A DNA stretch of 47,021 nt from Octopus sinensis (Eukaryota): contig NW_021834875.1 of the NCBI RefSeq assembly GCF_006345805.1, positions 1 to 47,021 of the forward strand, given 5' to 3'. Position numbers and translations under genes: made by a program. This document shows, piece after piece, positions 10,266 to 44,879 of this stretch. Each line of letters starts with the position of its first letter. Positions within the stretch are counted from its first letter, which is position 1. Below the pieces are notes generated by a model. It was not told the origin of the DNA and searched no databases. It saw nothing but the letters and a program-made list of their open reading frames with translations.

Positions 10266-10833
10266 TAGGCTGTCCCAAAAGTCATTGATGGGTTTCAATT
10301 TTTAATAACTTCCTTGTCTTTACAAATAAATGCATAAAATGTTGATACAATATAAAGGACAAAATGAAAATTAATATACACAACTCAAATTTTTCAACAC
10401 TACGAAATCATATTGGGAAAATGACATCGCTTGAATGGCAGCCATTTTCGGCTTCGCACGCCCGTGTCCTTTCCAAAACCAGCACCAGAAAGATTTGATG
10501 ACCATGACTGGAATGCTTTTGATCATACTCAAGAGTTTCAGACCCCACTTCTCTAATTTCTCTATTGATATTCTCTTTCAGTTGCACCAGGATCTCCGAT
10601 TTGTTGACATAAACCCTCTCATTGAAGTATCCCCACAAGAAAAAAATCTGGGCTATTCAAGTCTGGGGCAATTGAAGGCCAGTTGACATTGCCGTGTCGG
10701 GAGATTATTCTCTCTCCAAAGCACTGCCGTAGCAGCTGCATTATTTCTCTTGCGGTATGAGCAGTTGCCCCATCTTTCTGGAAACATGTGCGAGGCCTGC
10801 TTTGAATGACTGGGAGCAAAAAGGTCTCAATCA
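10266..10833 (-). mobile_element. 3' half of a Tc1/mariner DD41D (rosa/Visitor-like) transposon, pseudogenised
   Basis: FQKDGATAHT...WPSIAPDLNSPDFFL(W)GY: 41 residues separate the last two aspartates. It continues after a frameshift as WGYFNERVY...LKENI...RACEAENG, with a TIR-like end taggctgtcccaaaa at ~10266. Confidence 0.8.
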
Positions 10834-10880
10834 TTAAAAACACACAAAACCGTTAGATTCACTTCAACATTTAAATATAA

Positions 10881-10931
10881 TTTGTCAAAATATTTTCGTC
10901 GCTTTGAAACTGCGACCTGTTCACTGACAAA
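10881..10931 (-). ncRNA. Type I hammerhead ribozyme, G3-C8 core variant
   Basis: Minus strand reads UUUGUCA-GUGAACA-G-GUCGC agUUUcaaa GCGAC-GAAA-AUAU-U-U-UGACAAA: 7-bp stem I, 5-bp stem II and palindromic stem III AAUAUU. Confidence 0.7.
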
Positions 10932-10953
10932 ATTCCGAGATGCAGCACAGAAT

Positions 10954-11004
10954 TTTGTCAGTGAACAGGTCACAATTTCAAAGCGACGAAAACATTTTGA
11001 CAAA
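10954..11004 (+). ncRNA. Hammerhead ribozyme, G3-C8 variant, partly decayed copy
   Basis: Same fold, but stem II has a mismatch (GUCAC/GCGAC) and the stem III palindrome is broken (AACAUU). Confidence 0.5.
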
Positions 11005-11289
11005 TTATATTTAAATGTTGAAGTGAATCTAACGGTTTTTGTGTGATTTTAAGTGCTTTATAAACATCATCCAAGCTGCAATTGTTTTTGTTTCAGCACA
11101 CGATCTCAGATCAGGTCACTTGCTATGCAAGTACATCTCGGTAATAAATATTTAACGATTACGTAATATGTAGAGTGGGCAAAATTCTAACATTAGAACG
11201 GCACCAACATTCTTCAACGATTTTTTTAGTTAAACTGCTACGGAGATAAGATTAACTGATACAGTTGTTAAATGATCAATCAAGAGGAA

Positions 11290-11519: not shown

Positions 11520-12061
11520 AGATTGCATGTGGTCGTTTGACTTGTTAGAAATGTCAACCAAAGCTACCTTACATCATAACTTAAACCACCTGAGGAGAAT
11601 GAAAGACGCTTTATGTAATATAGACCGCGATGCACTATGTTTGATTGAAAGATTTGATGACCATGACTGGAAAGCTTTTGATCATACGAATACTTGATAA
11701 GAATTGATCACTGGTTAAAGAGTAACAAAATCAATAATCCAGCTTTTAGAAAAATGGCTGTTCATACGAACATGAAACGAAGAGTAGCTTCCCACATCAA
11801 TGGCAATGTTAACTGCCACAACCGCCATAGTGCTGAGATGGACGCTACAAGACGTCTTGCATCGCTGAAATGACTCAACGTGAGATGTCTGTCTGTTGGT
11901 GGTTCCAGAGAATCGTAACATTCTTCTTAAGGAAGCACTACAAACTGAAGAATGTTCCCATGCAGTGTTACTAGATTTCCTCATCATTTACCAACTGCGA
12001 TGGTTAAATATTTCAGCTGTTAATGATTAAGGTGTCTCGTGGCCATTTTCAAGTCAAACTT

Positions 12062-16044: not shown

Positions 16045-16116
16045 TGCGTCAGCCGGGGATCGAACCCGGACCGGCTGCTTGGGAGGCAACCATGCTAACC
16101 ATTACACCACTGACAC
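16045..16116 (-). tRNA. tRNA-Gly (anticodon CCC)
   Basis: GTGTCAGTGGTGTAATGGTTAGCATGGTTGCCTCCCAAGCAGCCGGTCCGGGTTCGATCCCCGGCTGACGCA, 72 nt. Acceptor GTGTCAG/CTGACGC, anticodon stem GTTGC/GCAGC, T stem CCGGG/CCCGG, and intact A and B boxes. Confidence 0.92.
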
Positions 16117-29127: not shown

Positions 29128-29327
29128 TGACCGCGTGTGTACCGTTGGCGATTCTTTTCCTCCGTCTTCCCTTCTCTGGATCTTTCCTTTTCCTATGTTT
29201 CTGACGAAGAGCTCCGCTCGAAACGTTAAATCCTCCTTCTTCCCTTCCTCCCTGAGCGTCCAATAATACTATATTTGTTCCACGTCCTCGCGTTGTTGTG
29301 TTTTCTCTTTGTGTTTTCTTGTTTAGA

Positions 29328-32600: not shown

Positions 32601-33866
32601 TCAGGTCATTCCATAAGTAATGTCCGAATTTCTTTATTGTCAATTTCTAAACGCTTTAACAGTATTTTAGAATGTCTAATGACATCAAGTAACATTTATA
32701 TGTATTTGGACATGTTTAAACTAATTAAATTTCATTTTGCAGGATAATGTAATTGAAATTTCGCTAATTAGAGCTCTTCAAACATGAAAGAGTCTAAGGA
32801 ACATTTGAGGCATATAATACATTATGAGTTTACAAAAGGGAATTCTGCAACTGAAACGACTCGAAATATTCACCCAGCTTATGGACAACAGAGCATGAAT
32901 AAAAGAATTTGCAGAAGATGTTTTGTAAAATTCAGATTTGGAATTTTCAGGCTTGAAGATGAGGCCAGAACAGAACGTCCAACTGAGTTTGATGACTAGC
33001 TCATTTTGGGAGAACTTGAAAAAGATCATGCAGTTTCAGATGAATAATTGTGAAGCAAGCTTCATTCGTGTCATACAACTGCTCACTGCCATCTTCAAGA
33101 GCTTTGGAAGGCTCCCAAACTCGCAAATGGGTGCCTCATGAAGTGTCTGAAACCAACTGCAAATCCTGAGTGGACTTCGGCTCTTCTCTTCGTTCTCGTG
33201 GGATAGAGAGGTGACCGGTGATGAAACATGTGTTCACTACCAAAATGTTAAGAATCCTAGACATTAGTTTGGTAAGGGGGAAAAGGGCCTAACCACAACC
33301 AGAATGGGAGCTCCATGTGAAGAAGGCTCTTCTTCTCAGTTCGGTGGGATTCCAAAGGAGGCATCCACTTTGAGTTGCTTCCAACTAATGCAACAGTCAA
33401 TGCTCAAATCTACTGTCAGCAATTAGAGCGTTTGCATGCTGCTTTGAAGAAAAAAGTCCTGCTTTAGTGAACCGAGAGGGAGTGTTGTTTCATCAGGGCA
33501 AAGCAAGACCCCCACACTGCAAAGATCACGTCACTGAATATCAAGGAACTTGGCTGGGAGAAAATTGTTCAACCGCATTATTCCCCAGACCTTGCTCCTT
33601 CCGATTACCATTTGTTCCGTAGTTTACAGAATCTTTTGGATAGATTAACTCTCGAAACAACCGAGTAAGTCGAAACTAACCTTTTAGAGTTCTCTTCGAA
33701 ACCGAAATAGTATTTCACTAATAGCATTTAAAAGCTTACGAGTAGATGGAAAGACGTCATAGATAATCATGGAAACTACATTGATGATTGAGTTTCATTA
33801 AAATGTAAGATTCGATCGCGTGTTTTCCTTATTTAAAATCCGGACATTACTTATGGGATGATCTGA
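32601..33866 (+). mobile_element. Full-length decayed mariner (DD34D) transposon, 1266 bp
   Basis: TIRs tcaggtcattccataagtaatgtccgaattt / aaatccggacattacttatgggatgatctga, with TA duplication on both sides. Confidence 0.95.
32784..33790 (+). pseudogene. Mariner transposase pseudogene
   Basis: MKESKEHLRHIIHYEF..., WVPHE, TGDET and YSPDLAPSDYHLFRSL motifs, broken by stops and frameshifts. Confidence 0.92.
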
Positions 33867-42387: not shown

Positions 42388-42562
42388 ATATGTATGTAAA
42401 ATAATAGTTATCGCCATACTAATATGGCATTCTTATAAAAATAAGAAAAAAGCTGTCCGCTTATTAGCTCCATGAGGCCATCGCCTTAAGTTAGCTATTT
42501 GATACACAAACTGTATCCATATAACCTTCGAACAAGGGAGGTCAGTCGCTCCACACTACTTG

Positions 42563-42624
42563 ACCGGCAGCTACAGACGCGTTTCGGGGTATTGCCCCTT
42601 TTCAATGCAGCGTAGCCAGCCAGT
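42563..42624 (-). ncRNA. Type I hammerhead ribozyme, U3-A8 variant (unit 1)
   Basis: Reverse complement of the motif at 43201-43262. Predicted cleavage is 3' of the C at 42576. Confidence 0.85.
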
Positions 42625-42920
42625 AGGTGTCGCTTCCGACAATCTCTGTTCTATGTTTTATTTACCTAGTTTCGGTGGAATACATCCACTTGTTTTCAAT
42701 AATAGAAATATTAAAATACTAAGTCTCTCTAAAAGAGAACAGCGGCAGCGTTCCCGGAAAATAATAGTTATCGCCATACTAATATGGCATTCTTATAAAA
42801 ATAAGAAAAAGCTGTCCGCTTATTAGCTCCATGAGGCCATCGCCTTAAGTTAGCTATTTGATACACAAACTGTATCCATATAACCTTCGAACAAGGAGGT
42901 CAGTCGCTCCACACTACTTG

Positions 42921-42982
42921 ACCGGCAGCTACAGACGCGTTTCGGGGTATTGCCCCTTTTCAATGCAGCGTAGCCAGCCAGT
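42921..42982 (-). ncRNA. Type I hammerhead ribozyme, U3-A8 variant (unit 2)
   Basis: Identical motif. Predicted cleavage is 3' of the C at 42934. Confidence 0.85.
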
Positions 42983-43200
42983 AGGTGTCGCTTCCGACAA
43001 TCTCTGTTCGATGGTTTTATTTACCTAGTTTCGGTGGAATACATCCACTTGTTTTCAATAATAGAAATATTAAAATAACTAAGTCTCTCTAAAAGAGAAC
43101 AGCGGCAGCGTTCCCGGAAAATAATAGTTATCGCCATACTAATAATATCGCCGAAACTAGGTAAATAAAACCATCGAACAGATTGTCGGAAGCGACACCT

Positions 43201-43262
43201 ACTGGCTGGCTACGCTGCATTGAAAAGGGGCAATACCCCGAAACGCGTCTGTAGCTGCCGGT
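43201..43262 (+). ncRNA. Type I hammerhead ribozyme, U3-A8 variant (inverted copy)
   Basis: ACUGGC uggcuac GCUGCA-UUGAAAA-GGGG caaua CCCC-GAAA-CGCG-U-C^-UGUAGC u GCCGGU, with the GUC site at 43247-43249. Confidence 0.85.
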
Positions 43263-43536
43263 CAAGTAGTGTGGAGCGACTGACCTCCCTTGTTCGAAGG
43301 TTATATGGATACAGTTTGTGTATCAAATAGCTAACTTAAGGCGATGGCCTCATGGAGCTAATAAGCGGACAGCTTTTTTCTTATTTTTATAAGAATGCCA
43401 TATTAGTATGGCGATAACTATTATTTTCCGGGAACGCTGCCGCTGTTCTCTTTTAGAGAGACTTAGTTATTTTAATATTTCTATTATGTATGTATGTATA
43501 TATGCAGGTATATCTATATAATATATATATATATAT

Positions 43537-43575
<39 letters not shown>

Positions 43576-44472
43576 TTATATATATATACACGTATATCTA
43601 TCTGTATGTATGTATGTGTGGGAAATATTACGTAATGGTGTAGAATAGAAGTAAGAGAGAGAGTCTGAAAGTTTATTTTGTTCATTTTCTTCGATGTAGG
43701 TGGGCAATGATGGCATCTCCGGCTCTGGATAAATATACAAGGCTGGCTTTATCTGGTACATTTTTTTTGACAAGGATTTTGTTTATGCAAAGTTAATTTG
43801 GCAACCCAGCAACGGACTCCTCTCTAATCTCAGAGTTAAAATTGAATTTTTGACGAAAGGAACTACCTTGGCTTGAACATTACTGGTAACAATATAAATA
43901 CATTTACTGTATGTCAGTTAAATCGTTTTCTAATTATCATGTGAGTGAATTCTGGTAGTTGAAAACCGTGTGAAAGCCCGTCGTATGTCTTGCCGTAAGG
44001 CCCTACTCATTCATTTATTCATTTCAGTTTGTTGCATGTTCACATTTTGTCTTTTTTGTTTCCGTCTTTATCCCTCGTCCATCCACTAATGCTCTCGTCT
44101 TGAATCACATTTATTTCACATCTGTATGTTCAATTTCTGTATTGCATATCTGTGTATTTATTGTTTGTTTGTTCATTTTCTGTTATGTTCGGACCCCTTG
44201 TTCGTTCGCTCGCTATTTCCCGGCGGCTTCTTTTTGTCGATACCACCAGATGGGATTAATATTATCGTTGAAACACGAAATTGCGTTTGACCCCACTGGC
44301 CGATGGCTGACGAGGATTTTGCGACCTTCTGTATTCGTTTTCTATTTGTTTGTGCATTTATTATACGTTTTTAACTTTTGTGTGTCTGTGTATGTGTGTG
44401 TGAGCTTGCGTGTTTCTGTGTGTGTATGTGCGTGTGTCTGTGTGTGTCTGTGTGTGTGTGTGTTTGTGAGCT

Positions 44473-44879
44473 AGTTTCATGGCAAAGAATTCATCAAGGT
44501 ATCTTTTTACGTCATCCAAGGAATTGAAATTTTTACTATTAAGACTATTCTGCAAAGACCTGAATAAGTGGAAATCCGAAGGAGCAATATCTGGTGAATA
44601 TGGAGGGTTGGGTAACATATCCCAGCCGAGCTGCAGTAATATTTGTCTGGTTCCCAAAGCATCAAGTGCCGAAAATGAACTTTCTTATCTTCCATTTTAA
44701 AAGGTTACAGAATTAACACAGGTTATAGGAACATAAACCTTCTTCCACGAAAAGATAGCTTAAACTGTGCTCTAAATGGAGGTGTAGTCAAATCCTATAT
44801 TATGGACTCAACCATGTTCTAAAATAAGTCGAAAGGTAAGCTGCTATAAATCGGCACGAACTTTCCGAACAACCCAATA
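44473..44879 (-). mobile_element. Second copy of the internally deleted mariner, truncated at (TG)n
   Basis: Homologous to ~5680-6088 with the same deletion junction. TIR aaatcggcacgaactttccgaacaacccaata. Confidence 0.9.

Follow-up and report, generated by a model that had tools for sequence, protein, structure and literature searches.

The hammerheads described in the pseudo-LTRs (pLTRs) of Penelope-like elements (PLEs) are recognized by an extra base after A9, a G10.1-C11.1 pair and a palindromic stem III (15.2-16.2). They are mostly single dispersed copies, are found as opposite-strand pairs, and have low, dimer-dependent activity (Cervera and De la Pena 2014, PMC4209133). The pLTRs of Penelope are 193-218 bp long and include the first codons of the ORF, with an optional tail of about 31 bp. 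A shorter inverted pLTR is located head-to-head and is ascribed to self-priming, an 18-bp palindrome is present at the 5′ end of one pLTR, and the junctions are without target-site duplication (Arkhipova et al. 2013, PMC3846280). The same plan is given for Penelope by Craig et al. 2021 (10.1101/2021.04.23.441226). Reverse transcription has two internal start sites, located 111-118 nt into the ORF, and these give rise to the tail (Frangieh et al. 2024, PMC11167929). In the anole element of the same study, cleavage is not needed for insertion in vitro, and no pile-up of RNA ends is seen at the cut.

The general acid of the hammerhead is the 2′-OH of residue 8 (PMC6155905), and the pair between residues 3 and 8 holds this residue in place (PMC3884650). 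Natural hammerheads with a U3-A8 pair have been reported (Perreault et al. 2011, PMC3088659), the Cercyon family of S. mansoni being one (PMC4209133). Cleavage by the PLE hammerhead is protein-assisted, and the C3G/G8C double mutant partly rescues it (PMC11167929). Retrozymes are defined by tandem hammerhead units and circular RNA (Cervera and De la Pena 2020, PMC7229834; Li et al. 2026, 10.64898/2026.07.22.740005).

The locus described here is located in a stretch of 47,021 nucleotides that was analysed as a whole (to be referred to as the window). With a probability of roughly 0.7, a dispersed repeat of high copy number is represented here by a short copy, likely the terminal repeat and tail of a Penelope-like element, which lies head-to-head with an inverted partial copy of itself and carries a G3-C8 hammerhead motif predicted to cut weakly, as a dimer.

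Overall organization of the locus

The window has the composition of animal-type DNA, is rich in microsatellites and contains a dispersed SINE-like repeat, which is reminiscent of octopus genomes. Self-comparison with BLAST finds an inverted repeat at 10834-11052, with 92.7% identity over 220 aligned columns. The two arms of this palindrome are 97 nt each and 94% alike, in agreement with the arms of about 100 bp in the original prediction. The palindrome abuts a broken DD41D transposon, also as predicted; the last two Asp residues are separated by 41 positions, and the fragment ends at 10833 (Table 1). From its DD41D motif, we take this fragment to be of the Tc1/mariner type. It has no continuation elsewhere in the window, and its short pieces have no Pfam match.

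Compared position by position, the arms differ at 4 of 91 places, and the minus arm carries the letter of the family at all four. The position of 11008 is T in both arms but A in 92-99% of the family, and the arms therefore come from one parent molecule. No other copies of the family are found in the window, and no target-site duplication is found at the locus.

Several other features were observed in the window. A 41-nt repeat with one mismatch is located at 10488-10528 and 11647-11687, its left copy interrupting the end of the DD41D transposase frame. There is a tRNA-like match at 16045-16116 (minus strand) and a piece of a Mos1-type HTH transposase at 32772-32996 (plus strand). Two minus-strand segments, at 44364-44684 and 114-770, are presumably a mariner DDE end and a FLYWCH-like frame, respectively; both were assigned by eye, and neither has a Pfam match.

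Table 1. Positions of the features of the locus, in window coordinates.
Feature	Position	Strand	Basis
Broken DD41D DNA transposon, 3′ fragment, flanking the insertion on the left	10266..10833 (left end approximate)	-	six-frame translation, D-41-D spacing
Inverted, 5′-truncated repeat copy, 104 nt; starts at the family position equal to plus-strand 10948	10834..10937	-	self-BLAST, position-wise comparison of the arms
Unpaired fold-back loop, 10 nt; first bases of the plus copy	10938..10947	+	matched by family reads, which extend upstream into a conserved loose end
Main repeat copy, likely pseudo-LTR and tail; 5′-truncated by at least 30 nt	10938..11151	+	depth in four runs, loose ends
Intact minimal type I hammerhead motif	10881..10931	-	sequence, folding, descriptor search
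Stem I, 7 bp	10931-10925/10887-10881	-	
Core G3-U4-G5-A6-A7-C8-A9 (GUGAACA)	10924-10918	-	
Extra G after A9	10917	-	
Stem II, 5 bp, closed by G10.1-C11.1	10916-10912/10902-10898	-	
G12-A13-A14	10897-10895	-	
Palindromic stem III AAUAUU (A15.1 to U16.1)	10894-10889	-	
U17; predicted cut between 10888 and 10887	10888	-	hammerhead numbering
Decayed second hammerhead copy, sharing the G3-C8 core (10961-10967)	10954..11004	+	fold, descriptor, family letters
Possible ORF start inside the tail	11053..11142	+	family A at 11053 gives ATG; translation

The hammerhead motif of the minus arm

The RNA of the minus arm reads UUUGUCA GUGAACA G GUCGC AGUUUCAAA GCGAC GAA AAUAUU U UGACAAA. Stems I and II enclose the core in a three-way junction. 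The cleavage triplet is UUU, which counts against the proposed reading. The consensus letters C3 and G8 (CUGANGA) are absent, and the Watson-Crick pair between these positions is kept as G3-C8. The other letters of the core (U4, G5, A6, A9, G12, A13, A14, A15.1, U16.1 and H17) conform. Stems I and II form in the minimum-energy fold of the minus arm (-13.7 kcal/mol, z score of -2.5), and one of 200 shuffles is as stable.

The window was searched with a descriptor of the minimal hammerhead that allows any Watson-Crick 3-8 pair, with 150 local dinucleotide shuffles as the control. There are five matches, namely the G3-C8 motif of the minus arm, three U3-A8 motifs (at 42605, 42963 and 43220) and a weak C3-G8 motif (at 29201), and the minus-arm motif has the longest stems among them (7 bp for stem I and 5 bp for stem II). 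The 150 shuffles give no G3-C8 match and no match of any core with 7- and 5-bp stems, while other cores with relaxed stems are found at 0.06 matches per window. As a further control, viral contigs contain 52 chance matches to these core letters, and both stems reach 4 bp in none of them. In Rfam, the window matches hairpin miRNA models alone, at the palindrome and in microsatellites, with no hammerhead. The hammerhead-shaped motif and the palindrome are real, and the fold, the descriptor search and the shuffles confirm the earlier description of the minus arm as hammerhead-shaped, with a GUGAACA core, a G3-C8 pair and one extra base after A9.

The three U3-A8 motifs belong to a second hammerhead family at 42398-43490, two of them on the minus strand (42963 and 42605) and one on the plus strand (43220). 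This family has a PLE-like layout, with a partial minus-strand tandem of about 359 nt and an inverted copy located head-to-head, 98.5% alike. The C3-G8 match (29197-29230) is canonical but weak, has 4-bp stems and a single copy, and is due to chance or decay.

A dispersed family in public runs

Evidence for the family was collected from two DNA runs (X1, from organism A, and X3) and two RNA runs (X23 and X24; these and X3 are from organism C), aligned to 10935-11285 at 80% likeness. About 6% of each RNA run was read, and runs X18-X20, with small word shares, were left out of the alignment. The stretch or a part of it is contained in 20 of the 24 listed runs, and half of its words or more in 12 of the 24, from several organisms. 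X1 and X3 have 10,339 and 7,074 DNA contig pieces, respectively (these are pieces, not copy numbers), and 1,899 of 12.9 million reads in X23 and 1,418 of 12.0 million in X24 match the family.

In all four runs, the depth extends from the start of the stretch to 11151, then falls to almost nothing at 11151-11162, with no coverage at all from 11163 onwards. The 3′ ends of the family cluster at 11139, 11145-11146 and 11151. The loose ends behind these positions are AT-rich and mixed (agreement of 0.47-0.63, with one RNA end at 0.78-0.79). The loose ends before 10938 show conserved sequence that is unlike the repeat (agreement of 0.52-0.76), and in the RNA runs their consensus begins with a perfect 18-nt palindrome. 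As the family runs at least 30 nt upstream of 10938 and ends at 11139-11151, its unit is at least about 240 nt, and the period of about 190 nt proposed originally is not supported. The right flank of the locus (11163-11285) has no contig or read coverage in the four runs, both DNA runs included, so either the species or allele of the window differs from those of the runs or records were filtered. Neither DNA run thus gives independent support to this exact locus.

Many copies end at 11151 and are followed by (AT)n, which suggests insertion into microsatellites. The upstream loose end resembles a branch point and a pyrimidine run, with an AG ending at 10939, which may be a 3′ splice site located 15 nt ahead of stem I. 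Introns occur in Penelope pLTRs. The 18-nt upstream palindrome was also considered as the centre of a long fold-back across the family, and was rejected as there is no matching RNA joint among those listed. A scan of metagenomes with an 18-nt motif finds 33 loci, all of them chance matches of 24 nt or less, and a 22-nt motif has no match in viral contigs or in prokaryote genome contigs.

Conservation of the core and the stems

Each of the four runs lists one G>C place, and this place is 11140. G3 is therefore not replaced by C at the 4% floor in any of the runs. For C>G, X3 lists 11056 alone, and C8 is therefore not replaced by G in that run, a count argument that covers X3 only. No place in 10961-10968 is among the best 40 of 131 variant rows. 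The G3-C8 pair is thus the majority state of a natural family of multi-thousand pieces.

The G3-C8 core is present in both arms of the palindrome. The plus-arm copy is damaged at two positions, with A at 10972 breaking stem II and C at 10993 breaking the palindrome of stem III. The family majority restores both losses, as 10972 is G in 58-86% and 10993 is T in 92-100%, so that the G-C pair of stem II and the AAUAUU palindrome are majority features of the family. Other changes keep wobble pairing (11000 A>G in 15-38%, 10971 and 10984 C>T in 2-27%), and G12 is A in 3-17% of the family reads. Such one-sided changes are no proof of selection, because those at 10971 and 10984 fall in CpG sites, where simple decay can account for them, and G12 shows decay as well. 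Conservation of G3/C8 together with covariation of the stems had been suggested as a check of the motif. G3 is not replaced by C at 4% in any of the four runs, and the per-column letter shares, which carry no linkage, show no two-sided compensatory change.

The core differs from the consensus exactly at positions 3 and 8 and is still complementary there, for which we estimate a chance of about 1 in 200 with two random changes. The stems and the palindrome are those of the family majority, and the second family in the window also keeps the 3-8 pair, as U3-A8. These observations make it unlikely that the G3-C8 hammerhead, with the same Penelope-type origin of the family, is a weak or inactive remnant that was multiplied passively because its master copy was successful. 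Such passive amplification would be in line with the anole element, where insertion in vitro proceeds without the need of cleavage and the double mutant gives a partial rescue (PMC11167929), with the 8 of 9 Xenopus dimers that show no cleavage (Li et al. 2026, bioRxiv 10.64898/2026.07.22.740005), and here with the column shares, which lack two-sided covariation, and the RNA reads, which have no ends at the predicted cut site.

The centre of the palindrome

The letters catctcgg are found at 11134-11141 on the plus strand and at 10942-10935 on the minus strand. In the original prediction, the minus-strand occurrence was taken as the end of one unit joined directly to the start of the next, on a tandem or circular template. 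The letters are indeed present on both strands, but the tandem or circular junction is not supported. The sequence catct is the reverse complement of 10938-10942, the first bases of the plus copy itself, which accounts for five of the eight letters. The remaining CGG, which opens the minus copy at 10937, corresponds to the usual upstream letters of the family (G at 10949 in 26-81%). At the start of the plus copy (10938), the family reads match 10938-10950 and then continue upstream, and the centre of the minus strand reads as a hairpin with a 10-nt loop. One junction explains the centre of the palindrome, whereas the circular model needs two.

A non-LTR retrozyme, in which a circular RNA of about 190 nt is reverse-transcribed across its ligation point to join catctcgg to aattttgtca, is largely refuted by these observations, and we consider it highly improbable. 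In its favour, the match at the end of the unit is exact over 8 letters, for which the chance is about 1 in 1,000 when all places in the unit are counted, the size is within the range of 170-400 nt (PMC7229834), retrozymes derive from the terminal repeats of PLEs (Li et al. 2026, 10.64898/2026.07.22.740005), and isolated back-joints of other kinds are present in single contigs. The family letter at 11140 is C in 77-87%, however, rather than the G of the octamer, and the loose ends lead into a different conserved sequence upstream and into mixed AT-rich flanks downstream. There are no tandem hammerhead units at the locus, and among the best 15 of 47 joints there is no unit-length back-joint and no joint from 11141 to 10951, so that the tandem junction expected in other copies is not seen among them. 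None of these 15 joints has RNA support.

Seven of the same 15 joints are head-to-head inversions that start at 10935-10956, supported by one or two contigs each, with the geometry of the locus. In the two RNA runs, no joint or end of a unit-length circular RNA is found, although circles may be under-sampled in these libraries, and RNA starts and ends do not pile up anywhere, the predicted cut site included, which is weak evidence either way. Between 86 and 90% of the family RNA reads run into unlike sequence, and the read directions are balanced (0.53 and 0.51, the strandedness of the libraries not being given). The family RNA looks like read-through of dispersed copies. The idea of a second, unrelated retrozyme-like family is thus retained in part: the G3-C8 family has no cross-match to the U3-A8 family at 42398-43490, but it is not a retrozyme. 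It shares with the animal non-LTR retrozymes a short non-coding repeat with a type I hammerhead, a similar size and a probable PLE ancestry (PMC7229834; 10.64898/2026.07.22.740005), and differs from them in that no tandem units, circular junction or discrete RNA are seen.

Finally, a chance look-alike in an unrelated dispersed repeat, or a palindrome produced by an assembly fold-back, would agree with the lack of a hammerhead match in Rfam and of the locus flank in the two DNA runs, but it has very little probability given that no shuffle (0/150) or viral core match (0/52) reaches such stems, that all the PLE-specific extras co-occur, that the arms differ at 4 of 91 places, and that other copies show the same type of inversion.

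Comparison with Penelope insertions

The Penelope-like reading is based on the size of the repeat, the head-to-head inversions, the staggered 3′ ends and the 18-nt 5′ palindrome. The span of the family (at least about 240 nt, including the minimal hammerhead motif) is that of a terminal repeat, and the inverted, 5′-truncated copy located head-to-head is seen at the locus as well as in the seven joints described above. Insertions of Penelope pLTRs with tails and inverted pLTRs have the same features, namely a repeat of about 200-240 nt, a shorter inverted copy head-to-head, staggered 3′ ends, a 5′ palindrome and no target-site duplication (PMC3846280, 10.1101/2021.04.23.441226, PMC11167929). 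In comparison, the locus here has the terminal piece alone. Membership in the Penelope group is therefore likely on the basis of anatomy.

The family has A at 11053 in 89-96%, which gives an ATG located 87-99 nt before the 3′ ends, and in this copy the frame stays open as far as the end of the element. This ATG may be the start of the ORF of the element, as judged from the sequence. The tail peptide, a short and decayed query that makes its negative results weak, has no match in 1.84 billion representatives, no usable match in the Atlas, none by word search and none in Pfam, and neither an RT nor a GIY-YIG domain is found among 67 of the 215 candidate peptides of the window.

Proposed origin and ribozyme action

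The following steps could have produced the locus. Reverse transcription would start inside the beginning of the ORF, giving the staggered 3′ ends at 11139-11151, and would stop early, at 10938. The strand would then fold back, copy about 104 nt of itself and join the broken DD41D transposon, after which the two arms would have drifted apart by 4 of 91 letters.

For the hammerhead, G3-C8 would keep the Watson-Crick pair that positions the 2′-OH of residue 8, the general acid, and an inverted 3-8 pair could retain activity because the pair has this role. Two copies of the motif, in one transcript or in two, would pair through AAUAUU to form a stem III of 6 bp, and the cut after U17 would leave an RNA end located about 55 nt upstream of the putative ATG. 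The locus itself lacks the ability to form such a dimer in cis, because its two motifs are on opposite strands. Stem III is too short in the monomer, where its one pair costs 5.4 kcal/mol. The hammerhead fold of the dimer has an energy of -23.8 kcal/mol, compared to -28.6 kcal/mol for the best fold of the dimer; that it is not the most stable fold is in line with the weak or assisted activity that is predicted.

Comparison with known hammerheads and implications

The motif resembles the PLE pLTR hammerheads in its type I layout, the extra base, the G10.1-C11.1 pair, the tiny palindromic stem III that needs a dimer, the occurrence mostly as single dispersed copies, and the opposite-strand pairs (PMC4209133). 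Neither the palindromic stem III nor the additional base after A9 is unusual, both being normal marks of minimal hammerheads of the Penelope type. The motif differs from that group in its G3-C8 core, in a stem I that is long for the group (7 bp), and in having no linked ORF. By our own count of the 56 representative motifs in Fig. S3 of the same paper, 53 have C3-G8, two have U3-A8, one has U3-G8 and none has G3-C8.

Exchange of positions 3 and 8 with Watson-Crick pairing kept is common to this motif, the natural U3-A8 hammerheads (PMC3088659, PMC4209133) and the engineered C3G/G8C variants (PMC11167929, PMC3884650). In the accessible parts of these four papers, however, G3-C8 is a laboratory mutant only, whereas it predominates in the natural family described here. 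No natural G3-C8 core was found in the literature searched, although the figure-only supplements of Perreault 2011, or Lunse et al. 2017, may contain some; the available portions of PMC6765202, PMC10085705, PMC13725137 and PMC6962438 hold nothing on it.

If the motif is a ribozyme, G3-C8 would be a natural variant of the minimal hammerhead, as read from its sequence. We propose only tentatively, at somewhat less than even odds, that a working natural G3-C8 hammerhead is fixed in a Penelope-derived family of multi-thousand copies across several related animal species, beside a U3-A8 family in the same genome. The mechanism and the genomic setting otherwise follow what has been described for Penelope-type elements, and the finding is less surprising for that reason. 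In the active core, C3-G8 is a key pair, with its inversion known as a laboratory rescue mutant and its natural exchange as U3-A8. If the proposal is correct, natural hammerheads use a fully inverted core pair, and searches fixed on CUGANGA or UUGANAA have missed a class of retroelement ribozymes, possibly in PLE clades reported to be free of hammerheads. A high-copy animal family fixed for G3-C8 would be natural evidence that selection keeps the pair and not the letters. It would argue for ribozyme searches that are less strict at positions 3 and 8 and would offer a ready substrate for assays.
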